Assembly: GCA_018302335.1 (NCBI GenBank) | Contig: JAGVZT010000001.1 | Span: 3,193-67,192 of the forward strand | Source of the DNA: Candidatus Woesearchaeota archaeon | GTDB taxonomy: Archaea; Nanobdellota; Nanobdellia; Woesearchaeales; JAGVZT01 | Direction of reading: 5' to 3' | Length of the DNA: 64,000 nt | Shown here: positions 6,151 through 45,490 of the stretch, piece after piece | Layout of the letters: each line of letters opens with the position of its first letter | How positions within the stretch are numbered: position 1 is the first letter of the stretch | The notes under the pieces: model-generated | The model's database searches: none | Told to the model about the DNA's origin: nothing | Seen by the model: only the letters and a program-made list of their open reading frames with translations | Program-made: the position numbers and the translations under genes

Positions 6151-6415
6151 TTTTGTGTATACTTTTTTGTGATGTTGCTGAGATTTCACACACATGGCTG
6201 TCCGTCATAGTATAATAAGCTTTTCCCCCGCATCTGGAAAGGGATTCCATCGGCTGCGCGGCGCACGACATCGGCCGTATTCCATGAGTTTTGGGTATCA
6301 CTGAGGCTTCCCCGGGAGCGTACGGCAACGCGGCCGGAGGTCTGATGGTTCGTCCTGACGAAACATTCTTTAAGGGGTTCCCGTCACCAGAGAGCCGGTT
6401 ATTAACAATAGTTAA

Positions 6416-7756
6416 ATGGGGGGGCAGATGGACCACACGCTTCGCGTCTATGAGAGCATTCTGGAGCTCCTGCCGAGCGAGGAGAACCCCACTCCCTTGG
6501 TCCGGCTGCAGAAGACCGTGCCGGAGCAGTTCCGCGTCTATGCGAAGCTCGAGTGGTACAACCCTTTCGGCGCGGTGAAGGACCGCATCGCAGCGAACAT
6601 GCTCCGCGACGCAGAGCGTCGCGGCCTCACTCCGCTGAAGAGGCTCATCGAGCCGACCAGCGGCAACACGGGCATCGGGCTTGCGATGATGGCCAATGCG
6701 CGCGGCTTCGCTCTGCGGACTCCGGTGAGCCAGGCCATCCCGCAGGAGAAGAAGACCACACTGCGCTTCCTCGGCAGCGATGTCGTGGAGATTCCCGACT
6801 CGCTCTGCCCGGACCCCAGCTCACCTGATGGTGCGATTGCCACGGCAAAGGGCATCGCTCGTTCGAATCCCGACCAGTGGCACATGCTCAACCAGTACGA
6901 GAACGACGCAAACATCGAGGCGCACTACCGCACCACGGGGCCGGAGATATGGCGGCAGACCGCAGGCAGGGTGACGCACTTCATCGCGGCGCTCGGGACC
7001 TGCGGGACCATCACCGGCACGGGGCGCTTCCTCAAGGAGCGCAATCCGGACGTGAAGGTCATCGGGGTGCATCCCCAGGAGGGCCACGAGATACCGGGAG
7101 TGCGGAGCATCAAGCAGCTCCAGGTGACGAAGCTCTTCCATCCTGAGGAGTACGACGCTCTTGTCGAGGTATCGAACGACGAGGCCTACGACCTCTGCCT
7201 CAGGCTCAACCGTGAGGAGAGCGTCATCGCGGGGCCGAGCAGCGGGCTGGCGCTCGCCGGTGCGCTCAAGGCGCTCGGCACCGAGCGGGACGCGCTGGCA
7301 GTGGTGATATTCCCCGACAACATCTTCAAGTACGCCAGTTTCCTGGAGAAGCATTTCCCGCAGTTCGCCGGCGCTGCGCAGCACGCGCCAGTCCCTGCCG
7401 GCCAGGACCCGCTGCTCGCCGCGATGCTCCAGGCCGCGAGGAATCCCCACACCACCCTGGAGGCGGAGGAGGCTCTCCCGCTGGTGACGCAGCAGGCCGC
7501 CGCGCTCGTCGACGTCCGGCCCGCGCAACAGTACCTCCAGGGCCATCTCCCCGGCGCGGTGAACATCCCGCTGCTGGAGCTGTCCAGCCGTGCGGCGCGG
7601 CTTCCGCGAGAGCGCCCGGTCATCACGGTCTGCAATCGCGGCAACGCTTCCATCTCCGGCATGCTCCTCCTGAGAGCGATGGGTTTCCAGGAGGTGCGCT
7701 CCCTGAACGGAGGCACCATCGGCTGGAGAGAGAAAGGATATCCCTTGGAGAGGTGA
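6416..7756 (+). CDS. cysteine synthase / cystathionine-beta-synthase family PLP enzyme fused to a C-terminal rhodanese domain
   Basis: N-terminal ~300 aa have PLP-fold motifs (AKLEWYNPFGAVKDR lysine region, EPTSGNTGIGLA, glycine loop GTCGTITG). C-terminal ~100 aa are a rhodanese module (LVDVRPAQQY...VITVCNRGNASI with the CxRG active-site loop). Alternative start at 6428. Confidence 0.85.
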   Translation: MGGQMDHTLRVYESILELLPSEENPTPLVRLQKTVPEQFRVYAKLEWYNPFGAVKDRIAANMLRDAERRGLTPLKRLIEPTSGNTGIGLAMMANARGFALRTPVSQAIPQEKKTTLRFLGSDVVEIPDSLCPDPSSPDGAIATAKGIARSNPDQWHMLNQYENDANIEAHYRTTGPEIWRQTAGRVTHFIAALGTCGTITGTGRFLKERNPDVKVIGVHPQEGHEIPGVRSIKQLQVTKLFHPEEYDALVEVSNDEAYDLCLRLNREESVIAGPSSGLALAGALKALGTERDALAVVIFPDNIFKYASFLEKHFPQFAGAAQHAPVPAGQDPLLAAMLQAARNPHTTLEAEEALPLVTQQAAALVDVRPAQQYLQGHLPGAVNIPLLELSSRAARLPRERPVITVCNRGNASISGMLLLRAMGFQEVRSLNGGTIGWREKGYPLER

Positions 7757-7761
7757 AACAC

Positions 7762-8625
7762 ATGGCAGAACAGCTGCAGCAGCAACGCTATGCGAACGAG
7801 CAGGCAGTGGTTTCAACGCAATGGGTCGCCGACCGTGTGAAGGACCAGAAGGTGCGCATCGTCGAGGTGGACTACGACCCCAAGAGCGCCTATGAGCTGG
7901 GCCACATCGGAGGGGCTGCCCTCATCCAGTGGGGGAAGGACCTCAATGATGGGGTGAGGCGCGACATCGTCAGCCCGCAGGGCTTTGCCGCGCTTCTCTC
8001 GCGCAATGGCATCACCCGCGAGAGCACGGTCATCCTCTATGGCGACTTCAACAACTGGTTCGCCGCGTTCGGCTACTGGGTCTTCAAGCTGTACGGACAC
8101 AAGGACGTGCGCCTGATGAACGGCGGCCGGAAGAAGTGGGCCGAGGAGAAGCGCTCCTACACCACCGAGGCGCCGAAGCTCGTCAAGAGCGTGTATCCGG
8201 AGCCCAAGGCTGACTGGACCCAGCGGGCGTATCTCCCGCAGGTGCAGGCCGCCCTCGGGAAGAAAGACTGGGGACTCGTCGACGTCCGCTCTCCCGCGGA
8301 GTACAAGGGCGAGATCACCGCTCCTCCGGAATACCAGAACGAGCAGTGCCGGGTCGCCGGCCACATCCCGGGCGCGAAGAGCATCCCGTGGGGCAAGGCA
8401 GTCAACGAGGACGGCACCTTCAAGTCCCAGGCGGAGCTGGAGGCGCTGTATCGCGCCGAGGGCATCACGCGGGACAAGTCCATCATCGCCTACTGCCGCA
8501 TCGGAGAGCGGAGCTCGCACACCTGGTTCGTGCTCAAGGAGCTGCTCGGCTATCCGAAGGTGGTGAATTATGACGGCTCCTGGACCGAGTGGGGCAACGC
8601 CGTGAACACCCCGGTGGAGCGGTGA
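7762..8625 (+). CDS. thiosulfate sulfurtransferase (tandem-domain rhodanese)
   Basis: Two rhodanese domains with active-site loop AYCRIGERSSH (CRxGxR type). The track start is GTG at 7753; ATG at 7762 is preferred. Confidence 0.85.
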   Translation: MAEQLQQQRYANEQAVVSTQWVADRVKDQKVRIVEVDYDPKSAYELGHIGGAALIQWGKDLNDGVRRDIVSPQGFAALLSRNGITRESTVILYGDFNNWFAAFGYWVFKLYGHKDVRLMNGGRKKWAEEKRSYTTEAPKLVKSVYPEPKADWTQRAYLPQVQAALGKKDWGLVDVRSPAEYKGEITAPPEYQNEQCRVAGHIPGAKSIPWGKAVNEDGTFKSQAELEALYRAEGITRDKSIIAYCRIGERSSHTWFVLKELLGYPKVVNYDGSWTEWGNAVNTPVER

Positions 8626-8834
8626 GGATAGATTTGCGGCAGAGCGAGGAGATGTGCGGCGAGTCCGGCGCGGCTCGCGCCATCGCCGCCATCGCCTCGG
8701 CGCACCGAGGGGAGCGCATCGAGGTCCTGAGCGACAACGCGGACCACCTCTTTGCGGTGCGAACCTGGGCGGAGCGCCACGGGCACTCTCTCCGGGAACA
8801 GGATTCCCGGCGCGTGCTCATCGAGGTCGCCTGA
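8622..8834 (+). CDS. TusA-like sulfur-carrier protein
   Basis: ~70 aa starting at GTG 8622: RIDLRQSEEMCGESGAA...GERIEVLSDNADHLFAVRTWAERHGHSL fits the TusA two-layer fold pattern (Cys near the N-terminus, then the evLeVlsDd and w...gH.l pattern). Reading-frame overlap with the rhodanese end; the track ORF begins earlier (8589). Confidence 0.5.
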   Translation: MRIDLRQSEEMCGESGAARAIAAIASAHRGERIEVLSDNADHLFAVRTWAERHGHSLREQDSRRVLIEVA

Positions 8835-9379
8835 TGGCCCTGGTGCGCGAGAGCGGGATGCCAGAGGAAACCCTCTGGGAGGGGTTCTTCGCGTCAGGCC
8901 TGCTGCAGCGGCTCGGCGTCCGCGGAACGGTGGCGGATTTCTGCTGCGGCTATGGCACCTTCAGCATCCCCGCCGCGCGCCTTGCGGAGCGGGTGCTGGC
9001 CTTCGACATCAGCGAGGAGATGGTCTCCCGCACCAGGGAACGCGCCGCTTCGCTCGGGCTCAGCAATCTTACCGCAGAGCGCTGCGACCTCGAGGAGGGA
9101 TGCCCGCTGCAGGAGCGGAGCGTGGACTGGGTGCTCCTGTGCAATATCCTCCACGGGGAGCGGCCTGAGCTGCTCCTCGGTGAGGCGAGGCGGATTCTCC
9201 GGCATGGGGGGAACGCGCTGCTGGTCCACTGGCTGCACGGAGCCACGCCGCGCGGGCCTCCGTTGGCCATCCGCCCCCGCCCGGAGGATCTTGAGAGGCT
9301 CGCCAGGGCTGCCGGATTCACCCGGCTGCAGCGGCGCGACGCCGTGCCGTGGCACTACGCAATCATAGCAGGGAGGTAG
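8834..9379 (+). CDS. class I SAM-dependent methyltransferase
   Basis: 181 aa from MALVRESG; motif I VADFCCGYGTF and post-I LAFDISEEM. ATG overlaps the TusA stop (TGATG). Confidence 0.75.
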   Translation: MALVRESGMPEETLWEGFFASGLLQRLGVRGTVADFCCGYGTFSIPAARLAERVLAFDISEEMVSRTRERAASLGLSNLTAERCDLEEGCPLQERSVDWVLLCNILHGERPELLLGEARRILRHGGNALLVHWLHGATPRGPPLAIRPRPEDLERLARAAGFTRLQRRDAVPWHYAIIAGR

Positions 9380-9382
9380 GAC

Positions 9383-10144
9383 ATGGGAACTGACAAGGGA
9401 ACGACTGCCAAAGCGCTCATCACGACGCTCCATCTGAAGAGCCCTCCGGTGGCCCTCACGAGAGTATCCGCCGCTCCTGCGGGAGTCCCGGCGCTCCGGG
9501 AGAAACTCCCCTCCAGCTGCGCCATGTGGCGACGGGCGGAGCACGGGGTATTCTACGCGAGCGCTGCGCAGCACATGGAATGCGCGGTCGGGGCGATGGT
9601 CATGGGCTTCTCCCTGAGCGGAGAGAAGCAGCAGGAGCTGATGTCGTTGGTGAAGCAGATGTGCGAGGTCTGCTACATCAAGGAGAGCGAGGTCCCGCAC
9701 ATCCCGCACTACACCGCTCCGGCCGATGGCATCGTCTACGGGCCGCTCTCGCGCTTTCCCCTCGAGCCCGACGCCGTGGTGCTGTGGCTTGATGCGCGCG
9801 GCGCGATGCTCCTCCAGGAGGCCCTCGGTGGAGCGGAATGGGGCGCCTCGCCCCAGGGCGCGGTCTTCGGCAGGCCGGGCTGCGCCGCGCTGCCCTTCGC
9901 GAAGGAGCACGGCTCCGCGGTCTCGCTGGGATGTGCAGGCATGCGCACCTTCACCGAGGTCAGCGGCGACCGTATGCTGGCGGTCGTCTCCGGGGAGAGG
10001 CTCTCCACTCTCGGGGAGCGCCTGCAGGTCGTCGCGAAGGCGAACGCGGCCATGCAGCTTCACTACGACCGGAAGAAGCGCGAGGTCAGAGCAGCGTCGG
10101 CAACTTCGCAAAAAACTCGCTCCGTGCATAGACGCGCGCGCTGA
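9383..10144 (+). CDS. conserved hypothetical protein (possibly DUF169 family)
   Basis: 253 aa with several conserved Cys (CAMW, MECAVGAM, CEVCYI, GCAALPF); no enzyme motif recognised. The family assignment is from memory and needs checking. Confidence 0.45.
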   Translation: MGTDKGTTAKALITTLHLKSPPVALTRVSAAPAGVPALREKLPSSCAMWRRAEHGVFYASAAQHMECAVGAMVMGFSLSGEKQQELMSLVKQMCEVCYIKESEVPHIPHYTAPADGIVYGPLSRFPLEPDAVVLWLDARGAMLLQEALGGAEWGASPQGAVFGRPGCAALPFAKEHGSAVSLGCAGMRTFTEVSGDRMLAVVSGERLSTLGERLQVVAKANAAMQLHYDRKKREVRAASATSQKTRSVHRRAR

Positions 10145-10385
10145 GCGCCCGGAGCTGGCCGATGCGCTCCTCAGCGGTGTGGCGCACGAAGGCCCGGCAT
10201 CGCGGCCCGAAGATTCTCGCCACGGAGAGGGCCTGCTGATGGCCGCCGTCCACGAGCACCACCTCGCTCCCCCTCGGGATGGCATCGGGCGAGGAGAAGA
10301 AATGCGCCTCCTTCCCGAGCTGGCGGAGCATCTCCTCGAGCTTCGCCCTGAAGAACAGCTCGTCGCAGAGGCACGCGACGGTCAT
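10086..10385 (-). CDS. hypothetical small protein (99 aa)
   Basis: Start MTVACLCDELFF preceded by GGAGGGAAGGAA (strong SD). 58-bp convergent overlap with the previous gene. Confidence 0.35.
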   Translation of the reverse strand: MTVACLCDELFFRAKLEEMLRQLGKEAHFFSSPDAIPRGSEVVLVDGGHQQALSVARIFGPRCRAFVRHTAEERIGQLRALSARVYARSEFFAKLPTLL

Positions 10386-10792
10386 TTCCTTCCCTCCGGC
10401 GGGATGATGACCCACGCGATGACGTACGCGAGGATGCCGTTGACGAAGCCCGTGAACACCGTGAGGAGCGCGAAGACCAGGCGCACCATGGCGGTGTCAT
10501 AGCCAAGATAGCGTGCGACGCCCGCGCACACTCCCGCGACGATGCGGTTGTCCTTCGGCCGCGCGAGGGCGGGTCTCCTGCCTTTCCGCAAGGCGGGCGC
10601 CTTCTTGTACGCGATGAGCAGATAGAGCGCGGCGCCGATGATGTTCAGGAACACGACGACCAGGACCCAGAGCAGTTTCTCGTCGTTCGGCATGTCGCTC
10701 CGCATGACCTCGACAAGGACCCATATCCAGAAGATGGCAGCGAGGAGGGCGAGGCCCATCATGCCGAACATCCACGTGCCGCTGAGGAACAT
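10382..10792 (-). CDS. small membrane protein with PLD-nuclease N-terminal TM domain plus PspC domain
   Basis: 137 aa from MFLSGTWMFG. N-terminal part LWVLVVVFLNIIGAALYLLIAYKK resembles PLDc_N; the C-terminus IAGVCAGVARYLGYDTAMVRLVFALLTVFTGF is a PspC domain. TATA-like ctttttattgg sits about 30 bp upstream. Confidence 0.6.
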   Translation of the reverse strand: MFLSGTWMFGMMGLALLAAIFWIWVLVEVMRSDMPNDEKLLWVLVVVFLNIIGAALYLLIAYKKAPALRKGRRPALARPKDNRIVAGVCAGVARYLGYDTAMVRLVFALLTVFTGFVNGILAYVIAWVIIPPEGRK

Positions 10793-23410: not shown

Positions 23411-24156
23411 GAGTTCGGGCCCCACTGGAGCTTCGCTGGGCTGCTCACGTACCGCTCGAGGAACTCTTCGAGCGGGCCGAGGTCCCTCGCCGTCAGCGGC
23501 CTGCCGTCCGGATGCCAGCACTGTGTCATCGCGACGCATATGCGCGTAAGGCCTATCGCCGTCATGCTGTGCACGTCCTTAATGTGCGCGGCATAGTGGG
23601 GGGCACCTATCCTGCTGGGAAAGGAGCGAACCTCGACGTCGTTGCCGGAGCCCTGCGCTGCCCGGTAAGCTACGGCCTGCTGCTCCGCGCTGAGAGGAGC
23701 GGAGAGCTGGTACGCCCCGCCCTTCTCGGGGGTGCGTGGCAGCTCCAGGATGCCGAACAGCCTCTTGCAGAGGTCAAGGTCCTCGCCCTCGGTGAACAGC
23801 CAGTGGTTGCCGCTCTCCAGCTCAGGAATCTGCTCCAGCGTGGTCTCCTGCGCGGTAAGCTGCCGCCATGCAGTGAGTTGGAAGTTGTCCCCGCCGAAGC
23901 GCTGGAAGAATTCGGCTGCGCCCTCCCTGTTGAGGAGCGGAGCATTATGGGAGACCATCGCCAGCGAGACATTGCCGAGCTCCCGGTCCGGCCGGGTGTA
24001 TTTCGCCGAGGCGCGGAGCAGATGGCCGGTCTTGTCGGTCGCCATCAGGGCAAGCTCCGTGCCGAGCGGGGCATCCCCCCGGTGCTGGATGAGCATCTCG
24101 TACAGACTCGCCACGAGACGAGGATTCCGAAGAGCTTTATATATTTTACTACTCAT
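23407..24156 (-). CDS. hypothetical protein (249 aa)
   Basis: Clean ORF convergent with the ATPase (stop codons overlap); no domain recognised. Confidence 0.45.
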   Translation of the reverse strand: MSSKIYKALRNPRLVASLYEMLIQHRGDAPLGTELALMATDKTGHLLRASAKYTRPDRELGNVSLAMVSHNAPLLNREGAAEFFQRFGGDNFQLTAWRQLTAQETTLEQIPELESGNHWLFTEGEDLDLCKRLFGILELPRTPEKGGAYQLSAPLSAEQQAVAYRAAQGSGNDVEVRSFPSRIGAPHYAAHIKDVHSMTAIGLTRICVAMTQCWHPDGRPLTARDLGPLEEFLERYVSSPAKLQWGPNS

Positions 24157-24294
24157 TGATGGAAACTATACACCCAGAACGCGCCCCCGCGGACACGCGC
24201 CAGGTTGGGCAATGCCCAACGTGCGCCTACTCCTATTTAAATAAGATTGTACTTGAATACAAACACTTATAAATAAAGAACCTCCTTTGGCAGT

Positions 24295-25407
24295 ATGCGA
24301 GAGGCAATACGCGCGGTAGCGCAGACAACGTTCGCCAGCACCGGAATCCTGCGGGAGAAATACGTCGCACCCATCGAAGCTTGGCTCTCCCGTCCTGAAA
24401 TCATTGTCGTCAAAGGCGTTCGCCGCTGCGGCAAATCCATCATCCTGCAGCAGGTGGCATCCCGCCTGCAGGAGAAGGCAGCATATGTGAATTTCGACGA
24501 CTATCGCCTGCTCATGCACCTTGACCTGTCGCTGCTGGATGAGATTCTGGCAGCGTATCCCGAGGTGGATTACTTCTTCTTCGATGAAGTGCAGAAGATT
24601 CCGCAGTTCGAGAGCTGGCTGCGTACCCACTATGACATCAAGACGCACAAGAAATTCATCATCAGCGGATCAAGCATCTCGTTGCTCTCGCCCGGTCTCG
24701 GCACTGTCCTCACTGGCAGGAACATCACCTTTGAGGTCTTCCCGCTTGACTTCGCGGAATTCTGCACGTTCGGCGGAGCATCGCTCGAGACCTACTTGGA
24801 ATGGGGCGGGTTCCCTGAGGTGGTGCTCGAGCCGGACCCTGCCAAGAAGCGGCAGCTCCTCACGCAGTACTTCAACGACATCCTCCTCCGGGACATTCTC
24901 GAGAAGCACGGCATCGCGCCGACACAGCAGTTCAAGGCTTCCGCGCAATACATCCTCGCGAACACCGGCCTCAAAATCAGCGCAAACAGGTTCGCGAAAG
25001 AGCTTGGAATCAACAGCCGCACCGCTGAAAACTACCTCTCACACATGATTGATGCGTACCTGATATTCGAAGTGCCCTTCTTCTCCCATAGCGCAAAGAC
25101 GAAGTACCGCGCCGGTAGGGCCTCCAAGTACTACTCAATCGACAACGGTCTGACGACCGCGCTCTCCACCAGGACCAACAGGGGGCACCTCTTCGAAGCC
25201 GCTGTCGCACACGCGCTGCGTGGGCGCGGCGCCGAACTCTATCACTGGTCCGGGAGCCGGGAGGTGGACTTCGTCCAGGGGGATACCGCATACCAGGCAA
25301 CGCTTACCTCCACCGGGGGGGACGCGTTCGCGGAACTGAGCCGGGAGTTCAAGCATATCAAGCGGACCGTGACTGTCACCCCAGCGGGCCTTGAGGTCCT
25401 TCATTGA
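24295..25407 (+). CDS. ATPase of the archaeal AAA_14/DUF4143 family
   Basis: Walker A VKGVRRCGKS and Walker B YFFFDEVQ; C-terminal DUF4143-like region. TATA cttataaataaag centred about 22 bp upstream of the ATG. Confidence 0.8.
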   Translation: MREAIRAVAQTTFASTGILREKYVAPIEAWLSRPEIIVVKGVRRCGKSIILQQVASRLQEKAAYVNFDDYRLLMHLDLSLLDEILAAYPEVDYFFFDEVQKIPQFESWLRTHYDIKTHKKFIISGSSISLLSPGLGTVLTGRNITFEVFPLDFAEFCTFGGASLETYLEWGGFPEVVLEPDPAKKRQLLTQYFNDILLRDILEKHGIAPTQQFKASAQYILANTGLKISANRFAKELGINSRTAENYLSHMIDAYLIFEVPFFSHSAKTKYRAGRASKYYSIDNGLTTALSTRTNRGHLFEAAVAHALRGRGAELYHWSGSREVDFVQGDTAYQATLTSTGGDAFAELSREFKHIKRTVTVTPAGLEVLH

Positions 25408-25666
25408 TGCTGCCCTGAAGAGTGCGTATCGCGACTGGCCTGCTGAACACGACGCTCGCGATGCGCCTGATGCGAGGGTCGCTCTATTTGTCTTAAGCGT
25501 ACCGGCCGCCAAGCCTGAAAATCTACGAGGTGACAGAACGATAGGCGGTGGCGAGCATGTCCTTGCGCTTCTCCAACAGAAGAATCTTCTGAAAGGTTAT
25601 GGCGGGGATGAGTCCGCTTCCTTATACCTGGTCTCGTGCGCAATGAGCTGCTACAAGACCATCCAG

Positions 25667-26191
25667 TCAGGAATCAAAAAAAGGCCCGTGCTTCTCGGCT
25701 TCTTGAAGGAATCTCAAATCCCTCTTGACGATGAATCTTCCCTGGTAATCCGTTGGCTTTTCCTTCTTCAGCAGTTCGATGGCTTCCTTGAGTAGGTACC
25801 ATTCCACCCTGAAACCTTCCATCTGCTCCTCTTGGGTATAGCTGGGCTCGCCCTCTTCACTCTCCGTGGCCAGGAAGCAGGTTGATGTCTGATGCTCACG
25901 AAGCCGACTCTTGTATTCCACTGTGTGACCAAGATGTTCGCCTATGCGTATTCTTGAGCCGATTTCCTCTTCCACTTCCCTGTGCAGGGCTTCTTCGGAG
26001 GTCTCTCCAATATCAATCCCTCCTCCTGGAAGCTTGTGATAGGAAAGCTTCTGGACGTGCAAAAGTGCAATTTTGTCTCCACGTCTCAGGACGCAGCGTG
26101 CGGCCCTGCGTTCCCTCCACGCACCCACCGTCCGGCTCTTCAACCCCACATCCTCGTCTCTCAACTCCAGGAGGGTTATCATCAGAACCAT
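25667..26191 (-). CDS. NUDIX hydrolase
   Basis: Nudix box GGGIDIGETSEEALHREVEEEIG. TATA ttcttaaac lies about 26 bp upstream (leaderless). Confidence 0.75.
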   Translation of the reverse strand: MVLMITLLELRDEDVGLKSRTVGAWRERRAARCVLRRGDKIALLHVQKLSYHKLPGGGIDIGETSEEALHREVEEEIGSRIRIGEHLGHTVEYKSRLREHQTSTCFLATESEEGEPSYTQEEQMEGFRVEWYLLKEAIELLKKEKPTDYQGRFIVKRDLRFLQEAEKHGPFFDS

Positions 26192-31306: not shown

Positions 31307-33250
31307 ATGAGACTCATGAAATCCGCAGTCCTGATGATGCTCCTTGCCGCCCTCTTCGCGATGCAGCTCGCCTCCGCCGCCACGGTCATTGTCCTCAACG
31401 AGACCGAACCGCAGATCTATTCCCTGCAGAGCGTCCTGGTCTCGGGAGACCTCGGCGCGAACTCCCTGAGCGTCATCGGCGGCGGGGAAGTCCTTTCCGG
31501 CAGCCTGGTGAAGGTCTATCTCTTCGGGCCGAGCCGGGACCTGCTCATCAAGGGCCTCTCGGTGAACGGCAGGTCCCGCTCCCTCTCCTTCGACGAGCAG
31601 GGCTACTACTTCCTCGCGGAGAAGGGCGACTTCGGCTTCTCTGCGGACATGGAGATTCGCACCATCGGCCAGGTCCGCCTGCACGTGCCCGGCCCGATGA
31701 ACGAGCTCACCTTCAAGCTCCAGCACGGCTACGCCATCGATGGTGACCGCTTCGGCGTCAAGGATGAGGATGTCATCATCCAGCGCTCCGAGAAGGTTGC
31801 GATGCTCTCGAACGGCAATTTCCGCTTCTCCTACGGCCTGCGCAACGAGTTCACCTACGATATCGCGTTCAGGGCCTTCGGCAAGTCCCTGGGCAGCTAC
31901 GTCCTCCCCCTCCGCAACGGGGAGACCGTCACGTCGGTGAGCGGCGCGCTCAACTGGGACCAGCAGGGAAGCCAGCTCCTTCTCGATCTCGCGGACAGCC
32001 AGGCGGAGGTCATCGTCAGGGGCTTCTTCAGCTCAGCCTCGCTGCGGGTCCCGCTCTCCGAGGACACGCACCATGTCCTGATAGAGTCCGACCCTGAGAA
32101 GAAGCTCACGGTCTCGACGGCCGCGAAGGAGATCGACCTCCAGGAGATACCCCTCGTCCCCCAGTACGGCAACGCGCGCGCCTTCCTTGCGGACGCGAAC
32201 GACAACTTTGAGGTGAGCGTGCAGAAGCTCGGCCTCCTGCCCTCGCTCGCTGCCGCAGTCCGGAGCGCCACGAACGTCGTCGCGGTGACCCCGAAGGGCA
32301 GCATCATCGGCGAGATGATTTATAACTATGCCAACACTGGGGTCGATTACCTCGAGGTGGACACGCCGGGCCAGCCCCTGTATGCCTCGACCGCGAGCAG
32401 TCCTGTCAAGCTCACGAAGGAAGAGAAGCTCCTGCTCGCCTTCCCCAAGGACGAGTACGGCACCCTGGACCTCGTGTACTTCACGACCAGGCACTCCATC
32501 CTTCCTGTCGACCTCATCAGCGTGCCGCTCGCGAGGACCGAGCTCCCCATCACCACGATGACGACGCAGATTCACCTGCCTGGGGATGTCTTCGTCCTGG
32601 AGACTTTCGGCGCGCAGGGCGGGAGCGAGCTGCCGGACCTGTGGACGGTCGTCGTCCTGGTCGCAATCCTCGCGTTCCTCGGCTACCTGCTGGTCAACGA
32701 CAGGAGGTTCATCGCGGCGTACGTGTTGTTGGCGACGAGCCTCCTCATCCTGGACGGCCGTCTGCTGCTGCTGCTCATCGCGGGGACGATTTACCTCAAG
32801 GTGCGCGACCGCCTCTCTGCTGGCGTCCTCAAGTGGCTCCTCGCAGGTGCGGGGATTCTCCTCGTCATCGTCCTCGTTGTCGGAGGGCTGATCTCCCTCC
32901 TGGGAGGCCTCGGGGGAACTCAGTACGCTGCGAGCGGGGTGTACGAGAGCTCGGCGGACAGCGGCATCATGGCCTCAGCGCCCGCTCCATTCTTCGAGGG
33001 CATGAGGAAGATAGGCGCGGATGAGGAAGCCGCAATCACCGTGCCCACGCGCGAGGGCGTCCTCCCGGTGAAACTGGAGATTCCCGAGCTCGGCAAGCAG
33101 GTCACCGTGACAAACGACCTCGTCACCAAGGAGAACCCGGTCAGCCTGCACGTGCTCGTGGTCGCGTCCTGGCTGAAGTACCTCTTCGTGGTTGCTGCGG
33201 TGCTTGCGGGCCTCTTCTGCCGTCGCGAGTACCGCGCCCGAAACCGCTAG
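31307..33250 (+). CDS. large secreted/membrane protein (signal peptide, ~430-aa extracellular beta-rich domain, several C-terminal TM helices)
   Basis: MRLMKSAVLMMLLAALFAMQLASAATVIV signal; hydrophobic helices at about aa 440-560 and 620-640; no catalytic motif recognised. TATA ctatataaac upstream. Confidence 0.65.
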   Translation: MRLMKSAVLMMLLAALFAMQLASAATVIVLNETEPQIYSLQSVLVSGDLGANSLSVIGGGEVLSGSLVKVYLFGPSRDLLIKGLSVNGRSRSLSFDEQGYYFLAEKGDFGFSADMEIRTIGQVRLHVPGPMNELTFKLQHGYAIDGDRFGVKDEDVIIQRSEKVAMLSNGNFRFSYGLRNEFTYDIAFRAFGKSLGSYVLPLRNGETVTSVSGALNWDQQGSQLLLDLADSQAEVIVRGFFSSASLRVPLSEDTHHVLIESDPEKKLTVSTAAKEIDLQEIPLVPQYGNARAFLADANDNFEVSVQKLGLLPSLAAAVRSATNVVAVTPKGSIIGEMIYNYANTGVDYLEVDTPGQPLYASTASSPVKLTKEEKLLLAFPKDEYGTLDLVYFTTRHSILPVDLISVPLARTELPITTMTTQIHLPGDVFVLETFGAQGGSELPDLWTVVVLVAILAFLGYLLVNDRRFIAAYVLLATSLLILDGRLLLLLIAGTIYLKVRDRLSAGVLKWLLAGAGILLVIVLVVGGLISLLGGLGGTQYAASGVYESSADSGIMASAPAPFFEGMRKIGADEEAAITVPTREGVLPVKLEIPELGKQVTVTNDLVTKENPVSLHVLVVASWLKYLFVVAAVLAGLFCRREYRARNR

Positions 33251-34416
33251 ACCTGCGCGAGGAGGTGGCCGAGCTTCTCCTTCTTCGAGCGGAGATACGC
33301 CCGGTTGGTCCGCGTGGGCCGGACCTCGAGAGGAACGCGCTCAATCACGCGGATTCCCGCTTCTTCCAGAGCGGAGATTTTCGCGGGATTGTTGGTCATC
33401 AGCCGCACGGAGCGCACCCCGAGGTCGGCCAGCATCGCCGCCGCGACGCCGTAGTCACGCTCGTCCGGGCGGAAGCCGAGATGCTCATTGGCCTGCACCG
33501 TATCGAGCCCGCGGTCCTGTAGGGCGTACGCACGGAGCTTGTTCGCGAGCCCGATGCCGCGGCCCTCCTGCCGGATGTAGAGCAGCACTCCCCCCTCTTT
33601 TGCGACAGCGCGCATCGCCTGCCGGAGCTGGGGCCCGCAGTCGCAGCGCTGCGAGAGCAGCGCCTCTCCGGTGAGGCATTCCGAGTGCACGCGGACAAGC
33701 GCTCCGTCCTTGACCTCGCCGCTGACGAGCGCGAGGTGGTGGGTGTCCGCGCGGTAGAGATGCAGGTCGAAGCTGCCGAACGGCGTCGGCAGGACAGTCA
33801 GGGCCTCCCATGCGGAGCGCTTCCGGAAGGCGATGAGGTCCGCGATGGAGACTATCTTGAGCCCATGCCGATGTGAGAACTCCTCAAGCTGCGGTATGCG
33901 CATCATCCCGCCATCGTCCGCGCAGAGCTCGCAGATGACTCCCGCGGGAGAGAGGCCGGCGAGGGAGCAGAGGTCCACCGCAGCCTCGGTATGCCCTGGA
34001 CGCGAGAGCACCCCTCCCGTTTCGGCGTGCAGGGGGAAGACATGCCCTGGCCTCCGGAGGTCTCCGGGCTTGGTGTCCGGAGCGAGCAGGGCCAGGATGG
34101 TCCGCGCCCGGTCTGCTGCGGAGACCCCGCTGGCCGTCCCGTGCCGGGCGTCCACGCTGACGGTGAACTTGCACTGCTGGCTCTCGGTGTTCGCTGCGAC
34201 CATCTCCGGCAGCTCCAGCGCAGCGAGACGCTGAGCGTTCATCGGGACGCAGACCAGTCCGGAAGCATGGCGCATCATGAACGTCAGTTTCTCAGCAGAG
34301 GCGAACTGCGCTGCAAGGAGCAGGTCGCCTTCGTTCTCGCGCTCGGTGCTGTCCACCACGATGAGCATCTCTCCTCGGCGCAGCGCATCGAGCGCCTCGG
34401 GGATGGGGCAGCTCAT
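33247..34416 (-). CDS. ribBA: bifunctional 3,4-dihydroxy-2-butanone-4-phosphate synthase / GTP cyclohydrolase II
   Basis: N-terminal RibB motifs (RENEGDL, HTEAAVDL) and C-terminal RibA motifs (zinc-site CxxC, Q...LMTNNPAK). Confidence 0.9.
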   Translation of the reverse strand: MSCPIPEALDALRRGEMLIVVDSTERENEGDLLLAAQFASAEKLTFMMRHASGLVCVPMNAQRLAALELPEMVAANTESQQCKFTVSVDARHGTASGVSAADRARTILALLAPDTKPGDLRRPGHVFPLHAETGGVLSRPGHTEAAVDLCSLAGLSPAGVICELCADDGGMMRIPQLEEFSHRHGLKIVSIADLIAFRKRSAWEALTVLPTPFGSFDLHLYRADTHHLALVSGEVKDGALVRVHSECLTGEALLSQRCDCGPQLRQAMRAVAKEGGVLLYIRQEGRGIGLANKLRAYALQDRGLDTVQANEHLGFRPDERDYGVAAAMLADLGVRSVRLMTNNPAKISALEEAGIRVIERVPLEVRPTRTNRAYLRSKKEKLGHLLAQV

Positions 34417-35489
34417 GGCCGCGCCTCCACCAAGATGTCCGTTCCGCTCCTGCTGACGGAGAGCGACGTGAGGCGGAGAGCGTCCGCGAGCGCGGGAGTC
34501 TCCCCGCCGACGAGGCCCTTGGCATCGCCGCCGATGAGCAGGGGCGCGACGAAGAGCAGCACCCGGTCCACCAGGCCTTCTGCGAGCATCGCGGCGTTGA
34601 GCTCGCTGCCGCCTTCGAGGAGCACGCTTGCGATGCCTTGCTGGCCCAGCTTGCCGAGCAGGTCCTTCAGGCTCACCCTGCCGTTCACCGCATCGCAGAG
34701 CAGCACCTCCGCTCCGGCCGCAGCCAGCGCCTCTGCCCGGAGGAGCGGCGCATGCTCCGTCACCGCCACGATGGTCCTGCCGGTTTCGTGAAGCATGGAC
34801 GCATCCGGCGGAAGTCGGGCGGAGCTGTCCACCACCACGCGCACGGGACTGCGTCCTTCAGGGATGCGGCAGGTCAGTCTTGGATTGTCACGGAGGGCGG
34901 TCCCGATGCCCACCATCACGGCATCGTGCTGGTCCCGCAGGCGGTGGGCTGCCTCGCGGCTCTCCTCGCAGGATATCCAGCGGGACTCTCCGTGCGCGGC
35001 CGTGAGCTTGCCGTCGAGCGAGGTCGCTGCCTTCATGGTGACGAACGGCATCGCGGTGGTGACGTGCTTGGCGAAGAAGCGGATGATATCCCGGCACCGT
35101 TCCTCGAGGACCCCGGTGGTGACCTCGATGCCTGCGGCGCGCAATGCCGCGGCTCCCCTGCCGCTCACCTTCGGGTTGGGGTCGGTGCAGCCGAAGACCA
35201 CCTGCGAGATTCCCGCGCGGATGATGGCCTCGGTGCACGGTCCGGTCCGTCCGGTGTGGCAGCAGGGCTCCAGGGTGCAGAAAAGAGTCGCTCCTTGGAC
35301 ATCGTTGCCGCGCGAGGCCGCGTCGGCAATCGCCTCGACCTCGGCGTGCGGCAGTCCCGCCTTGCAGTGGAAGCCTTCACCGATGACCCTGCCATCGCGG
35401 ACCAGCACCGCCCCGACCGGAGGATTCGGCGAGGTCCGGCCGAGTCCGCGCTCCGCGAGGGCCAGCGCCAGCTCCATGAACTCGCTCAT
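34413..35489 (-). CDS. ribD: riboflavin biosynthesis deaminase/reductase
   Basis: 359 aa from MSEFMELALALAE; CMP/dCMP-deaminase zinc motif HAEVEAI...LEPCCHTGRTGPC and a C-terminal RibD reductase domain. The N-terminal 99 track codons are out-of-context junk; ATGA overlap with ribH. Confidence 0.85.
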   Translation of the reverse strand: MSEFMELALALAERGLGRTSPNPPVGAVLVRDGRVIGEGFHCKAGLPHAEVEAIADAASRGNDVQGATLFCTLEPCCHTGRTGPCTEAIIRAGISQVVFGCTDPNPKVSGRGAAALRAAGIEVTTGVLEERCRDIIRFFAKHVTTAMPFVTMKAATSLDGKLTAAHGESRWISCEESREAAHRLRDQHDAVMVGIGTALRDNPRLTCRIPEGRSPVRVVVDSSARLPPDASMLHETGRTIVAVTEHAPLLRAEALAAAGAEVLLCDAVNGRVSLKDLLGKLGQQGIASVLLEGGSELNAAMLAEGLVDRVLLFVAPLLIGGDAKGLVGGETPALADALRLTSLSVSRSGTDILVEARP

Positions 35490-35881
35490 TGCTTCACCAT
35501 GGCCAGCGCCGCCTCGACTCCGTGCTGGGCGTAGGGCTCCGCGCGCTTCGTCGCCTGGTCCCAGGTGACATCGGGGCCGATGATGCTCAGCGTCACCGGA
35601 GTGTCGAAGCGGAGCATCAGCTCCATCAGGGCGTTCGCCACCGACTTCGCGATGACCTCGTCGTGGGACGTCTCTCCCTTGATGATGGCTCCGAGCACGA
35701 CGACCGCGCCGACCTCTTTGCATGAGAGCATACGCTGCACGGCAAGAGGGAGCTCGAACGCGCCCGGGACATGCGCGATGACGCACTCGGCCTTCCTGCG
35801 CTTCGCCTCAGCCTGCGCTGCCGCGAGCATGAGGGAGGTGATTCCTTCGTTGAAATCCGCGACCACAATGCCAAGTTTCAT
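35486..35881 (-). CDS. ribH: 6,7-dimethyl-8-ribityllumazine synthase
   Basis: 131 aa MKLGIVVADFNEGITSLM...; lumazine synthase fold motifs. Confidence 0.85.
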   Translation of the reverse strand: MKLGIVVADFNEGITSLMLAAAQAEAKRRKAECVIAHVPGAFELPLAVQRMLSCKEVGAVVVLGAIIKGETSHDEVIAKSVANALMELMLRFDTPVTLSIIGPDVTWDQATKRAEPYAQHGVEAALAMVKQ

Positions 35882-36342
35882 GGGCGCACCTCGATTGCCC
35901 CTGCGTCCGGATAGCCCTGCCTTCGGCCCTGGCCGGCGAAGGGCGTCAGGCCCGTGCCGTCCCGCAGCAGCAGCGCGTTGAGCGCGTGCTTCCGCGCGCG
36001 GTCCAGCGCGATTTCCGCCTGGCGCCGCTCGTCCCCGGGCGCCTCGCTCTCATGGAAGAAGACCTTGAGGATGTGCTTGCCCTCCTGGACCTCGGCCATG
36101 ATGAGACCGATGTTCGCCTCGTGCGCGCAGCGCTCGTCGATATCCTTGCCTCCTACCCACCCCAGGGCGATGACCAGGTCGCAGCCCTGCTCCCGGAGGA
36201 GCCGCACCGAGGCTGCGGGAAGGTCCTTCATCCCCGGGACCGTGTAGCGGGAGAGCTCCACGGTCGCGCTGCGGAGCGCATCTATGGCCTCTGCTGCCAT
36301 GTCCACGCGCGCGAAGGTGGTGTCTGCGATGCCTATTTTCAT
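35878..36342 (-). CDS. ribC: riboflavin synthase, archaeal type (lumazine-synthase-like fold)
   Basis: 154 aa MKIGIADTTFARVDMA..., resembling the MJ1184-type archaeal riboflavin synthase; sits between ribH and rbkR. Confidence 0.7.
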   Translation of the reverse strand: MKIGIADTTFARVDMAAEAIDALRSATVELSRYTVPGMKDLPAASVRLLREQGCDLVIALGWVGGKDIDERCAHEANIGLIMAEVQEGKHILKVFFHESEAPGDERRQAEIALDRARKHALNALLLRDGTGLTPFAGQGRRQGYPDAGAIEVRP

Positions 36343-36974
36343 GGGGACACCTCCACTGTCTGGCCATCCTTCAGGTTGAGCGCCTTCCTGAGGAAGACAG
36401 GCGCGATGAGCTCAAGAGTGTCCCTCTTGTGCGCAGTCCGGTCCGGAACGAGCGCTGCGCCATGCACCCTGCGCTGGATGCTCAGGGGGTAGCAGTGCAC
36501 CGCTCCGTAGGTGCGCTGGCTGGTGGAGAACCCGTCGACGGTGACTTTCCGCAGGGGGGAGAGGAAGCGGCGAGCGTCCTCTTCGCGGACCTGGAGGTTG
36601 AGCGTCCCGGGATAGGGCGTGAAGCCCAGCGCCTTTGCGATGCGGCTGCTGTACACCTTCACGTAGAAGGCCCCTTCTCCGAGGCCGCTGGCCACCTTGC
36701 CGGCGAGGGCGGGGGTCTTCCGGTCAAGAAGCCCCTCGAGGCGGCCCTTCTCCTCGCGCAGCGTGGACCAGCCCTGCTCGGTCAGGGAGAGCTGCTGGCC
36801 CTGCGAGGCGAGCTTGCGCGCGATGAGGCCGCGCTCCTCCATCGCGCGGATGTGGCGCGAGGCGCTCTGCTGGGAGACTCCCCAGAGTATGCCCAGCTCC
36901 GCCGTCGATACCGGCTTCTGCCCGTGAGCGAGAAGCTCCGCCAGCAGGCGGAGCTCGATGTATATCCCCCCCAT
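36339..36974 (-). CDS. rbkR: RbkR: winged-HTH regulator fused to CTP-dependent riboflavin kinase
   Basis: N-terminal HTH (VSTAELGILWGVSQQSASRHIRAMEERGLI) plus C-terminal archaeal riboflavin kinase domain (GTLNLQV...PLRKVTVDGF...HGAALVPDRTAHKRDTLELIAP). First gene of the rib operon. Confidence 0.75.
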   Translation of the reverse strand: MGGIYIELRLLAELLAHGQKPVSTAELGILWGVSQQSASRHIRAMEERGLIARKLASQGQQLSLTEQGWSTLREEKGRLEGLLDRKTPALAGKVASGLGEGAFYVKVYSSRIAKALGFTPYPGTLNLQVREEDARRFLSPLRKVTVDGFSTSQRTYGAVHCYPLSIQRRVHGAALVPDRTAHKRDTLELIAPVFLRKALNLKDGQTVEVSP

Positions 36975-44787: not shown

Positions 44788-44807
44788 GCCGGAGGGGAAG
44801 CGCCCGG

Positions 44808-44849
44808 GGTATAAGAATCTTCGGATGAAATCAACCAGATGGTTGATTT
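44808..44849 (+). promoter_or_regulatory. shared divergent promoter with a perfect 10-bp-arm palindrome (candidate Lrp operator)
   Basis: gggtataagaatc TATA box followed by AAATCAACCA-GA-TGGTTGATTT (44828-44849), about 55 bp upstream of the lrp-family gene's ATG. Confidence 0.5.
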
Positions 44850-44905
44850 ACTGCAAGGGTAGGTTCATCATCCACCCCGCATTCTCCGGAAGCAGAGGTG
44901 GGAAC

Positions 44906-45385: not shown

Positions 45386-45413
45386 ATGGGGATGGCTCTG
45401 GGAGCGCACACGA

Positions 45414-45490
45414 CGGCCGCACTGCGAAGAATTTCCGGGATTCCTGCGAGACAGACCGGAACTTGCACGGGATTCCGGCCTGGATACGGA
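45414..45490 (+). repeat. hairpin-forming intergenic element, copy D
   Basis: cggccgcactgcgaagaatttccgggattcctgcgagacagaccggaacttgcacgggattccggcc, downstream of the lrp-family gene. Confidence 0.55.

Follow-up and report, generated by a model that had tools for sequence, protein, structure and literature searches.

Gene Content and Layout of the Operon

A five-gene operon occupies positions 6416–10144 on the plus strand of the window, the 64-kb (64,000-nucleotide) stretch of an archaeal contig analyzed here. Its genes encode, in order, a fusion of a PLP-dependent (PALP) enzyme to a rhodanese domain, a CysA2-type tandem rhodanese, a TusA-like protein, a SAM methyltransferase and a DUF169 protein. 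All five open reading frames match the coordinates and strand of the original prediction, and the domain assignments uphold both the identities and the order that it gave. The genes are all translationally coupled, with junctions of −4, −4, −1 and +3 nt, and GC3 is 0.82–0.88 across every called frame. A TATA-like AT-rich stretch read directly from the DNA, GTTATTAACAATAGTTAAAT (6397–6416, +), lies just 5′ of the probable first start codon, ATG 6428, and on this archaeal contig is tentatively a candidate promoter element. The ahcY gene (13334/13508–14764), previously drawn on as nearby support for a role in methyl and sulfur metabolism, is excluded from the operon because three minus-strand genes intervene.

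A CysM-type Enzyme Fused to a Rhodanese Domain

The first gene (6416–7756, +) encodes a CysM-type PLP enzyme with a single C-terminal rhodanese domain, 446 residues long if read from ATG 6416 and 442 from ATG 6428, the start used in every database gene call. The PLP domain (residues 22–301; 6479–7318, +; Pfam PALP 2.9e-63, and alignments) carries the PLP lysine K55 (6578–6580), a TSGNTG asparagine loop, a GTCGT phosphate loop and R230. Its nearest solved relatives are the CysM enzymes of Salmonella and E. coli (7e-59; 203 bits to 2JC3/2V03), and the fusion scores 253 bits with the NCBIfam cysM model compared with 165 bits for SbnA, although it stays under every NCBIfam equivalog cut-off (252.9 versus 394.2 for cysM, 266 versus 344 for cysKM). 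CysM is the class of cysteine synthase that accepts bulky sulfur nucleophiles: thiosulfate is used by the E. coli enzyme and a protein thiocarboxylate by that of Mycobacterium tuberculosis. Alignment to 2JC3 reveals a family-specific inserted loop, LCPDP (consensus LCPxP; 6803–6817, +; C131 at 6806–6808), an addition of 5 residues over enterobacterial CysM that also occurs in two unfused relatives (L005 and L006).

The rhodanese domain (residues 351–439; 7466–7732, +; Pfam 6.7e-19) contains the catalytic loop CNRGNAS (7631–7651), with the catalytic C406 at 7631–7633, which aligns with the catalytic cysteine of BpPRF, a persulfide dioxygenase fused to a rhodanese (5VE3; C-to-S variant 5VE4). 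In an AF2 model (m9517e9d0449e) both domains are confidently predicted (mean pLDDT 87.5), joined by a flexible linker (residues 320–329; 7373–7402, +) with pLDDT below 50. Across 121 sequences, namely the fusion and the best 120 of >7,900 database matches, K55, S82, N84, C196, R230 and S275 of the PLP domain, C131, P132 and P134 of the inserted loop, and C406 and G409 of the rhodanese domain are all invariant (121/121). Because the PLP lysine, the asparagine loop and the rhodanese cysteine are retained throughout this set, the objection that the C-terminal domain might lack its catalytic cysteine fails. The protein is, as had been proposed, a genuine fusion of the two domains.

The Sulfurtransferase, TusA-like and Remaining Genes

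The second gene (7753–8625, +) starts either at GTG 7753, which overlaps the upstream stop codon, or at ATG 7762, as in database gene calls. Its product has two rhodanese stretches by Pfam, with the active cysteine (8494–8496) in a CRIGERS loop, and it matches Thermus rhodanese (1UAR, 1.2e-100) and the M. tuberculosis thiosulfate sulfurtransferases (3HWI/3AAX, ∼1e-87), as expected of a CysA2-type tandem-domain thiosulfate sulfurtransferase. Rhodaneses of this type are independently linked to CysM-like genes at two other loci (L005 and L009).

The third gene (8622–8834, +), annotated at NCBI as hypothetical protein J4439_00070, encodes a divergent TusA-like putative sulfur carrier of 70 residues, recognized with a profile of its own subfamily. 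The predicted overlap of a GTG start with the end of the rhodanese gene is borne out (GTGA), at GTG 8622 and not at the proposed GTG 8589, which was rejected in view of this overlap and of the starts in two relatives (L084 and L176), where the reading frame also begins directly after the rhodanese stop codon. The Pfam TusA score is 24.5 bits, under the 28.6 cut-off. The subfamily profile nevertheless matches the TusA-fold structures TM0983, Ta1170 and YedF, and the invariant Cys12 (8655–8657; motif EMCGES) falls on their CPxP cysteine; the CPxP-like motif that had been anticipated is absent, the protein reading C-G-E-S. The subfamily is rare (∼31 representatives among 1.84 billion), yet the gene is real: it adjoins the same type of rhodanese independently on three contigs, those of the window, L084 and L176, and since the relatives also keep the cysteine, the concern that the reading frame might not be conserved is removed.

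The fourth gene (8834–9379, +) encodes a class I SAM-dependent methyltransferase of 181 residues (Pfam Methyltransf_25/31/11; 59.8 bits for Methyltransf_25) whose true start, ATG 8834, overlaps the TusA-like stop codon (TGATG). As an operon partner it is conserved in one relative (L084), where a 55% identical orthologue is likewise coupled to the TusA-like gene. Another 79 metagenome loci carry homologues. Homologues of this methyltransferase are usually preceded by ArsR-type regulators, and some have DsrE-like, rhodanese or AhpD-like neighbors. The last gene (9383–10144, +) encodes a DUF169 protein of 253 residues (Pfam 74.7 bits) in which four cysteines and one histidine (C46, H64, C67, C167 and C184) are invariant among 25 homologues; it is not kept as a partner in the relatives' loci.

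Distribution and Gene Contexts of the Fusion

The fusion is not an unusual architecture; it is common in bacteria. The best 120 of >7,900 database matches are all full-length fused homologues (56–67% identity), from Myxococcota, Planctomycetota, Acidobacteriota, Gemmatimonadota and Actinomycetota, and JGI already labels such proteins "cysteine synthase/rhodanese-related sulfurtransferase." At 3 of the 12 loci examined (L087, L174 and L002), JAB-ThiS-ThiF/rhodanese (MoeZ) genes, which are the mycobacterial CysO/Mec/MoeZ gene set, lie directly downstream of the fusion, with Rrf2/IscS/IscA also on its 3′ side; none of the ThiS, JAB or ThiF genes is found within the 64-kb window. CysD/CysNC lie near the fusion at a fourth locus (L175) and IscA/Mrp/Nfu upstream of it at a fifth (L085); these surroundings are contexts of cysteine and sulfur supply. 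The set of fusion, tandem rhodanese, TusA-like protein and methyltransferase recurs only with a 67% identical relative (L084). The tandem rhodanese and TusA-like genes are missing from most fusion loci, and therefore the fused domain cannot generally depend on them.

A Possible Route to Cysteine from Protein-carried Sulfur

The best reading of these data, plausible at a probability that we put at roughly 0.45, is that the operon serves to build cysteine with protein-borne sulfur at the sulfane level (from thiosulfate or persulfides) in place of free sulfide. Taking the gene identities, the operon structure, the invariance of every catalytic residue and the conserved rhodanese/TusA-like pair as established, we infer a sulfur source, an order of transfer, a nucleophile and an amino acid substrate as follows. 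The tandem rhodanese would accept the outer sulfur atom of thiosulfate on the cysteine of its CRIGERS loop, setting sulfite free, and hand it on to the small TusA-like protein. This carrier, bearing it on its own cysteine, would deliver it to C406 of the rhodanese domain, flexibly tethered to the CysM-type PLP domain. There O-acetyl- or O-phosphoserine would be converted to an aminoacrylate on K55. Sulfur might be added to it in one of two ways, through a direct attack by the C406 persulfide with subsequent reductive release, or as sulfide set free within the active site. Candidate resolving thiols are C131 and C196, the two cysteines specific to the family, and the methyltransferase and DUF169 protein may be lineage-specific accessories.

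This reading of cysteine synthesis from carried sulfur is favored because the PLP domain is closest to CysM, because K55, the asparagine loop, R230 and C406 are invariant among the 121 sequences, and because C406 aligns with the catalytic cysteine of an active rhodanese fusion. It also draws on the cysteine and sulfur supply contexts of the fusion elsewhere, the linkage of CysA2-type rhodaneses to CysM-like genes, the recurrent rhodanese/TusA-like adjacency, the translational coupling of all five genes, and the experimental precedent for sulfur exchange between rhodanese and TusA in other systems (PMC11094781, PMC4175335). Against it count the subthreshold NCBIfam scores, the uncertain domain placement in the model (pTM 0.67, with a disordered linker), the missing partner genes at most fusion loci, and the presence on MoeZ of a rhodanese of its own wherever CysO/MoeZ occur. 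The genes next to the operon include none for a thiosulfate transporter, a serine acetyltransferase or a reductant, our literature search returned no biochemical data on any fused family member, and characterized fungal enzymes of the same architecture form C–N and not C–S bonds (PMC12751119); these points weigh on the same side. Of the original proposal, a protein-bound sulfur donor fits the closeness to CysM and the CysO/Mec/MoeZ set after the fusion at 3 of 12 loci, whereas the singling out of a persulfide over sulfide, thiosulfate or thiocarboxylate is not supported.

The protein could instead be an ordinary sulfide-dependent CysM with HS− as its nucleophile, the fused rhodanese, tandem rhodanese and TusA-like protein generating or buffering sulfide nearby (thiosulfate and reductant giving sulfide and sulfite) or protecting the enzyme. 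The PLP domain does have all the residues of a normal O-acetylserine sulfhydrylase, dedicated carrier genes are missing at most fusion loci, and one fusion adjoins sulfate-activation genes that end in sulfide. We nonetheless think this unlikely, as it leaves unexplained a covalent fusion whose catalytic cysteine is 100% conserved across phyla in the best 120 of >7,900 matches, the invariant extra cysteines C131 and C196, and the recurrent CysO-type contexts. E. coli CysM condenses thiosulfate directly to S-sulfocysteine, and the CysM domain here might do the same, with rhodanese-type cysteines then stripping sulfite to leave cysteine. The closest solved relatives are indeed thiosulfate-using enterobacterial enzymes, with the equivalent arginine kept as R230, and thiosulfate sulfurtransferase genes adjoin. 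However, we know of no rhodanese that strips sulfite from S-sulfocysteine, and the occurrence of the fusion in CysO-type operons is left unaccounted for; even though an archaeal TusA can bear a thiosulfonate group (PMC4175335), we hold this route to be highly unlikely.

It is quite unlikely that the genes form a reactive-sulfur stress operon. In such an operon the rhodaneses and TusA would serve to scavenge sulfane sulfur and CysM to assimilate sulfide, while the methyltransferase would convert sulfide, methanethiol or a persulfide into methylated products that are volatile or inert. The ArsR-type and DsrE-like/rhodanese/AhpD-like surroundings of the methyltransferase homologues, the likeness of the fused rhodanese to those on persulfide dioxygenases (among the nearest solved relatives, after 1YT8) and the precedent of H2S and MeSH detoxification by cytosolic class I SAM methyltransferases (PMC11445057, PMC12904073) would suit such a role, but the operon and its immediate neighborhood contain no regulator, sulfide:quinone oxidoreductase or persulfide dioxygenase, and the fusion contexts elsewhere are biosynthetic. 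The rhodanese domain might also be a redox or regulatory module, like the C-terminal regulatory domain of cystathionine β-synthase, its adjacency to other sulfurtransferases being incidental. Such domains are common in the superfamily, cystathionine β-synthase entries are among the fold matches, and the additional invariant cysteines might act as a redox switch; the six-residue catalytic loop with its invariant cysteine is, however, typical of active sulfurtransferases, and the four-gene synteny recurs in the 67% identical relative, which makes this scarcely probable. We give least credence to a C–N bond-forming β-substitution enzyme akin to aspergillomarasmine A synthase, Fda4 or SbnA, one that would join O-phosphoserine and an amino acid and whose rhodanese-like domain would play no part in sulfur chemistry. 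Over the two domains together, the best fold match is indeed aspergillomarasmine A synthase (8H4H; E 3.7e-30, 27% identity, 471 aligned columns), and Fda4, a PLP enzyme that likewise has a rhodanese-like domain, couples O-phosphoserine to alanine (PMC12751119). But the scores favor CysM over SbnA, the rhodanese cysteine is invariant and aligned with a catalytic one, sulfur-transfer genes are neighbors here and CysO or sulfate-assimilation genes elsewhere, and no oxidoreductase or NRPS partner is present.

Comparison with Known Systems

Enterobacterial CysM (O-acetylserine sulfhydrylase B; 2JC3, 2V03 and 2BHS) is the best match in both sequence and fold (residues 25–319, ∼37–38% identity, TM 0.9 to target). 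The two share the PLP lysine, the TSGNTG loop, the phosphate loop and the R230-equivalent arginine, whereas the enterobacterial enzyme, which accepts thiosulfate besides sulfide, has neither the rhodanese domain nor the LCPxP insertion and carries a threonine at the position of C196. M. tuberculosis CysM matches less well (158 bits) than its E. coli counterpart, but the thiocarboxylate-dependent CysM-CysO-Mec-MoeZ pathway (EC 2.5.1.113) also gives a CysM-type enzyme a protein-bound sulfur donor. There the sulfur comes from a rhodanese domain that is part of MoeZ (PMC3227635); here such a domain resides on the synthase, and the carrier is TusA-like, implying persulfide chemistry, and not a ubiquitin-like thiocarboxylate.

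The solved structures nearest to the fused rhodanese after the multidomain sulfurtransferase 1YT8 include the rhodanese domains of persulfide dioxygenase fusions (BpPRF, 5VE3; 3TP9), and the TVC(R/N)xGxxS loop and catalytic cysteine align. They offer a precedent for a rhodanese that is tethered to an enzyme and deals with the sulfur compound which that enzyme consumes or makes, although the partner there is a metallo-β-lactamase-fold dioxygenase of sulfide oxidation and not a PLP enzyme of biosynthesis. Fungal aspergillomarasmine A synthase and Fusarium Fda4 have the same architecture, a cysteine synthase-like PLP domain with a rhodanese-like domain (PMC12751119), but at only 27% identity; they belong to eukaryotic secondary metabolism, join O-phosphoserine to Asp or Ala (alanine for Fda4) through a C–N bond, and have no sulfur-transfer partners described.

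M. tuberculosis CysA2/CysA3 and SseA and the Thermus rhodanese (3AAX, 3HWI, 3HZU and 1UAR) are full-length close homologues of the tandem rhodanese and share its CRI(G/A)ERS loop. Mycobacterial cysA2/cysA3 are paired with a small partner gene, sseC; here the small partner is a divergent TusA-like protein, and the operon is shared with a cysteine synthase. Like members of the TusA family, this protein is a small single-cysteine carrier of TusA fold, its cysteine aligning with the CPxP cysteine of TM0983, Ta1170 and TusA, but its motif is CG(D/E)x, the preceding loop is two residues longer, and the score falls under the Pfam cut-off. The rhodanese-TusA-DsrE relays known to us supply tRNA thiolation, Moco synthesis or sulfur oxidation, never a PLP enzyme.

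Organization of the Operon

Five ORFs lie on the + strand between window positions 6416 and 10144, in the order that the original prediction described, namely a PLP enzyme fused to a rhodanese domain, a tandem-domain rhodanese, a TusA-like carrier, a SAM methyltransferase, and a multi-cysteine protein. Pfam agrees with all five identities, the TusA-like match being sub-threshold. The TGA of the fusion overlaps GTG 7753 of the tandem rhodanese, whose own TGA overlaps GTG 8622 (GTGA) of the TusA-like gene, the TGA of which in turn overlaps the methyltransferase ATG 8834 (TGATG), and the fifth gene starts 3 nt past the methyltransferase stop; the genes are thus packed in a way that allows translational coupling. 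GC3 is 0.82-0.88 in every called frame, and the GC content of the operon (0.66) matches that of the window (0.64). The gene ahcY, which had been linked to the cluster, is 3 kb away with three opposite-strand genes between (PspC-like, a Na+/H+ exchanger, and DeoC), and we rejected it as an operon member, it being a separate transcription unit.

No riboswitch or leader was detected 5' of the operon by Rfam, the sole matches being two tRNAs elsewhere. An AT-rich stretch, GTTATTAACAATAGTTAAAT, lies at 6397-6416, directly 5' of the probable start ATG 6428 and within DNA of 65% GC; this could be a candidate archaeal TATA box, leading to a leaderless or short-leader transcript. At the other end, a convergent 109-residue ORF at 10086-10415 on the - strand, with a coding-like GC3 of 0.85, shares 59 nt with the 3' end of the fifth gene; Pfam gives no match for it, and a near-identical contig (L081) carries it as a gene call of 99 residues.

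The Fused Enzyme and Its Invariant Cysteines

The predicted fusion is borne out by Pfam matches to PALP (2.9e-63, residues 22-301) and Rhodanese (6.7e-19, residues 351-439). Enterobacterial CysM is the nearest match of the PLP domain (7e-59 against 2JC3/2V03; Foldseek TM 0.9 to target), with lower scores for Mycobacterium tuberculosis CysM, CysK, and CBS. Among NCBIfam models cysKM and cysM rank highest, all under their cut-offs (cysKM 266 versus 344, cysM 252.9 versus 394.2, and cysK 233.6 versus 351), and by sequence the fusion belongs to the CysK/CysM superfamily, outside every named equivalog tested. In an AF2 model both domains are predicted with confidence (mean pLDDT 87.5), but the linker at residues 320-329 is disordered and the pTM is 0.67, which leaves the relative placement of the domains undefined.

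We aligned the fusion with its best 120 database homologues, all of which contain both Pfam domains at 56-67% identity. The PLP lysine, whose conservation had been put forward as a check, is Lys-55 within GAVKDR, which aligns with the CysM lysine and is present in 121/121 sequences. The substrate (asparagine) loop TSGNTG (Ser-82/Asn-84), the GTCGTITG phosphate loop, and PSSG, for the serine that contacts the pyridine nitrogen, are likewise present and invariant in the fused family (121/121 for Ser-82, Asn-84, and Ser-275). So is Arg-230 (121/121), considered for its bearing on O-phosphoserine versus O-acetylserine as substrate; it aligns with the position of M. tuberculosis Arg-220, where enterobacterial CysM also has an arginine. 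The same check on the rhodanese domain gave a similarly clear result, with Cys-406 and Gly-409 of the loop CNRGNAS found in all 121 proteins; Cys-406 opens a six-residue active-site loop and aligns with the catalytic cysteine of BpPRF, whose C-to-S variant is PDB 5VE4.

Two further cysteines are specific to this family. Cys-131 lies in an LCPxP loop (6803-6817), a five-residue insertion relative to CysM that ends, in the alignment, six residues ahead of the position of CysM Met-119, a residue lining the substrate pocket. Cys-196 (7001-7003) lies in the phosphate loop, which reads GTCGT in place of the GTTGT of CysM. Both cysteines occur in 121/121 fused proteins and also in unfused relatives on a Nitrospiraceae contig (L005:986-1948) and a Spirochaetales contig (L006:8001-8951), and both are absent from characterized CysM and CysK. 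The invariance of the LCPxP and GTCGT cysteines across the whole subfamily is a new element.

The Tandem Rhodanese and the TusA-like Protein

The second gene holds two Pfam rhodanese stretches and a CRIGERS loop, as expected of the tandem-domain sulfurtransferase that had been proposed. It matches over its full length the Thermus rhodanese 1UAR (1.2e-100) and M. tuberculosis CysA2/CysA3/SseA (3AAX/3HWI). CRIGERS aligns with CRIAERS, the common loop being CRxxERS, and the catalytic cysteine (Cys-248) is found in the C-terminal domain only, within a CRxGERS loop, as in CysA2/SseA-type proteins. Two other loci are independent links of CysA2-type rhodaneses with cysteine synthase genes. On the Nitrospiraceae contig such a rhodanese directly follows the unfused LCPxP-type CysM, and on a Phycisphaerae contig (L009:3618-7642) five genes lie on one strand, encoding a CysM-like protein, a JAB peptidase, a tandem rhodanese of the CysA2 type (54% identity with the one in the window), a CysK-like protein, and APS kinase.

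For the third gene, a GTG start inside the rhodanese gene had been proposed, and the longest ORF does run from GTG 8589 (+). However, we rejected this codon, as conserved sequence opens only at IDLR (8628), and the related genes on two other contigs (L084 and L176) start just past the rhodanese stop, so that GTG 8622, giving a protein of 70 residues, is the likely start. NCBI annotates the ORF as a hypothetical protein, it misses the Pfam TusA gathering cut-off (24.5 versus 28.6 bits), and a word-based homologue search found nothing beyond the ORF itself and its L084 counterpart. When 1.84 billion representatives were searched exhaustively with HMMER, 31 TusA-like proteins were recovered, mostly of 70-110 residues. 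Alignment of 17 members of this subfamily reveals a single invariant cysteine (Cys-12 of the window protein) in the consensus DLxxxExxCG(D/E), and 15 of the 17 match Pfam TusA at E <= 0.01. A profile of the subfamily, from which every known TusA was left out, matches TM0983, Ta1170, and YedF (1JDQ, 1PAV, and 1JE3), the invariant cysteine falling on the cysteine of their CPxP motif. The CPxP-like motif itself, for which an alignment had been suggested, is not there, the sequence being CGES in the window and CGDP in L084. The ORF is nevertheless conserved in relatives, being present in L084 and also in L176, a third independent contig, where a CRIGERS rhodanese is directly followed by the carrier. 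Given the HMMER subfamily, the matches to TusA folds, and the adjacency to rhodanese on three contigs, sequence comparison indicates that this is a real, rare, and divergent TusA without CPxP and a specific partner of CysA2-type rhodaneses. CPxP, the signature of TusA carriers, occurs in the loop of the fusion yet has been lost from the operon's own TusA-like protein.

The Methyltransferase and DUF169

The fourth gene, called a SAM methyltransferase in the original prediction, matches several class I Pfam models (Methyltransf_25 at 59.8 bits, the cut-off being 27). The protein, of 181 residues, shares 55% identity with the orthologue in L084, and its motif I (DxGCGxG) reads DFCCGYG. Its best solved relative is an uncharacterized Sulfolobus protein (PDB 3I9F, 3.9e-10). 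An ArsM-like, cysteine-based mechanism was considered and rejected, as there is no conserved cysteine past motif I. We surveyed 79 further metagenome loci (L089-L167) with homologues of 40-50% identity, at which tblastn found none of the operon partners seen in the window. The commonest neighbor is an ArsR-type regulator just 5' of the methyltransferase homologue (20 of the 80 neighbor ORFs scanned); DsrE-like (6), SHOCT (5), rhodanese (2), SelA (2), and AhpD-like (CxxC) proteins are found as well. Small membrane/SHOCT or DsrE-like proteins are often found 3' of these genes. The ArsR, DsrE-like, SelA, and rhodanese neighbors hint at a stress role for the family, involving sulfur/selenium or a metalloid. 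Methyltransferases of broadly the same class that act on H2S or methanethiol exist (MddH, MddM1/2; PMC11445057, PMC12904073).

The fifth protein had been described as a multi-cysteine unknown. It is indeed rich in cysteine, with four that are invariant together with one invariant histidine, but Pfam does assign it, to DUF169 (PF02596; 74.7 bits against a cut-off of 27; about 950 homologues). The AF2 model is confident, yet no solved structural relative was found. Its homologues sit in unrelated gene contexts and it is absent from L084; DUF169 is probably a lineage-specific addition to the operon.

Distribution and Genomic Context of the Fusion

The fusion is far from unique. It is widespread, with >7,900 significant matches among 8,000 candidates scored; named homologues come from Myxococcota, Planctomycetota, and 'Deltaproteobacteria', genome loci from Gemmatimonadota, Vicinamibacterales, Phycisphaerae, and Acidimicrobiaceae, and many homologues already bear the JGI label 'cysteine synthase/rhodanese-related sulfurtransferase'. 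A scan of genome contigs with the fusion alignment gave matches mostly to the generic [VI]EPTSGNTG pattern, full fusions being limited to L001-L004. The literature searched contained no work on a CysM-rhodanese fusion from a prokaryote.

Twelve fusion loci were inspected. In three of these (L087, L174, and L002) JAB-ThiS-ThiF/rhodanese genes lie directly 3' of the fusion, with Rrf2 and IscA next and, in L087 and L174, IscS too. JAB-ThiS-ThiF/rhodanese genes make up the mycobacterial CysO system (PMC3227635), in which CysM depends on a thiocarboxylate (EC 2.5.1.113), and Iyer et al. 2006 (PMC1779556) listed operons of this kind in which the cysteine synthase is unfused. By tblastn, none of its components (ThiS-like CysO, JAB (Mec), and ThiF-rhodanese (MoeZ)) is encoded in the 64-kb window. 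One locus each places the fusion beside CysD/CysNC (L175), downstream of IscA/Mrp/Nfu (L085), or near an IscS-like gene (L173). Neighbors were uninformative in L086 (Pfam-annotated gene calls) and in L001, L003, and L004 (tblastn scans only, using a fixed set of proteins related to sulfur). Among the inspected loci, the fusion is joined by genes for the tandem rhodanese, the TusA-like protein, and the methyltransferase only in the window, of which L081-L083 and L088 are near-identical copies, and in L084, which has no DUF169 and whose fusion is 67% identical to that of the window. With loci so varied and so few carrying the window's partners, the fused family has the look of a CysM-type cysteine synthase with a housekeeping role, and the window operon shows one particular sulfur-supply module. 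A further new element is that here, on an archaeal contig, a rhodanese-fused CysM is specifically paired with a rare TusA lacking CPxP and with a CysA2-type rhodanese.

The contig is labeled as DPANN, which makes the operon noteworthy; to our knowledge, DPANN organisms are generally held to lack amino acid biosynthesis. On the - strand, at 33247-36974 and 40612-43098, are RibBA, lumazine synthase, riboflavin synthase, HTH-riboflavin kinase, and family B DNA polymerase. The riboflavin synthase is of the archaeal type (TIGR01506, above cut-off) and the riboflavin kinase is HTH-fused and CTP-dependent, and these markers together with the family B polymerase indicate that the contig is archaeal. 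A GC content of 64% is unusual for the Candidatus Woesearchaeota label that NCBI gives the source MAG (proteins MBS3163803-810), and the label is surprising too for an operon of sulfur biosynthesis, the nearest named homologues of the fusion being bacterial. Patches of lower GC (0.55-0.60 versus 0.64-0.67) at 24001-26000, 44001-46000, and 48001-52000, one of which adjoins a tRNA-Glu (48799-48873), may be inserted or mobile DNA.

Proposed Chemistry and Comparison with Known Systems

With small corrections, the gene-level observation is confirmed, and the protein-persulfide interpretation attached to it seems a reasonable one. CysM-type enzymes take thiosulfate or protein thiocarboxylate (PMC3227635). 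The best-supported reading of the operon is that sulfane sulfur is assimilated into cysteine by a protein relay, in which the tandem rhodanese would be loaded by thiosulfate or another persulfide source and would load the TusA-like carrier, which would then load Cys-406 of the fused rhodanese, the sulfur finally being added to the CysM aminoacrylate. Exchange of sulfur between rhodanese and TusA is documented (PMC11094781), and an archaeal TusA is able to carry thiosulfonate (PMC4175335). The sulfur source, the order of transfer, the use of OAS or OPS, and direct persulfide attack versus local sulfide release are points of this scheme that we infer; direct persulfide attack on the aminoacrylate would require a reductive release, for which Cys-131 or Cys-196 are candidates.

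The most serious rival keeps free sulfide as the nucleophile. We consider it unlikely, at roughly one chance in five, that cysteine is made without free sulfide through a Cys-406 persulfide passed to, or resolved by, Cys-131 near the pocket, with the sulfur placed directly onto the PLP-aminoacrylate. A different chemistry altogether is raised by the top fold match over both domains of the fusion, fungal aspergillomarasmine A synthase, and in Fusarium the joining of O-phosphoserine and alanine is carried out by a PLP enzyme that has a rhodanese-like domain (PMC12751119). As these fungal C-N enzymes share the architecture of the fusion, architecture alone is no proof of C-S chemistry; the CysM-like sequence, the invariant catalytic cysteine, and the sulfur-related neighbors nonetheless argue for it here.

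Should the relay operate, it would provide a function for a very large, phylogenetically broad, and uncharacterized CysM subfamily. Invariant Cys-406 and the LCPxP cysteine offer sharp handles on the hypothesis, and the window operon supplies candidate physiological donors in its tandem rhodanese and TusA-like carrier. For a rhodanese tethered to the enzyme that it serves, the PDO-rhodanese fusions, including BpPRF, with which the fused rhodanese loop aligns, are a precedent. If the Cys-406/Cys-131 persulfide reading is true, it would be a new reaction mode of fold-type II PLP enzymes, present in thousands of bacteria and this archaeon and running alongside the thiocarboxylate route of CysO; and if protein persulfides do feed cysteine synthesis, this would be a second protein-mediated, sulfide-sparing route beside that of mycobacterial CysO.
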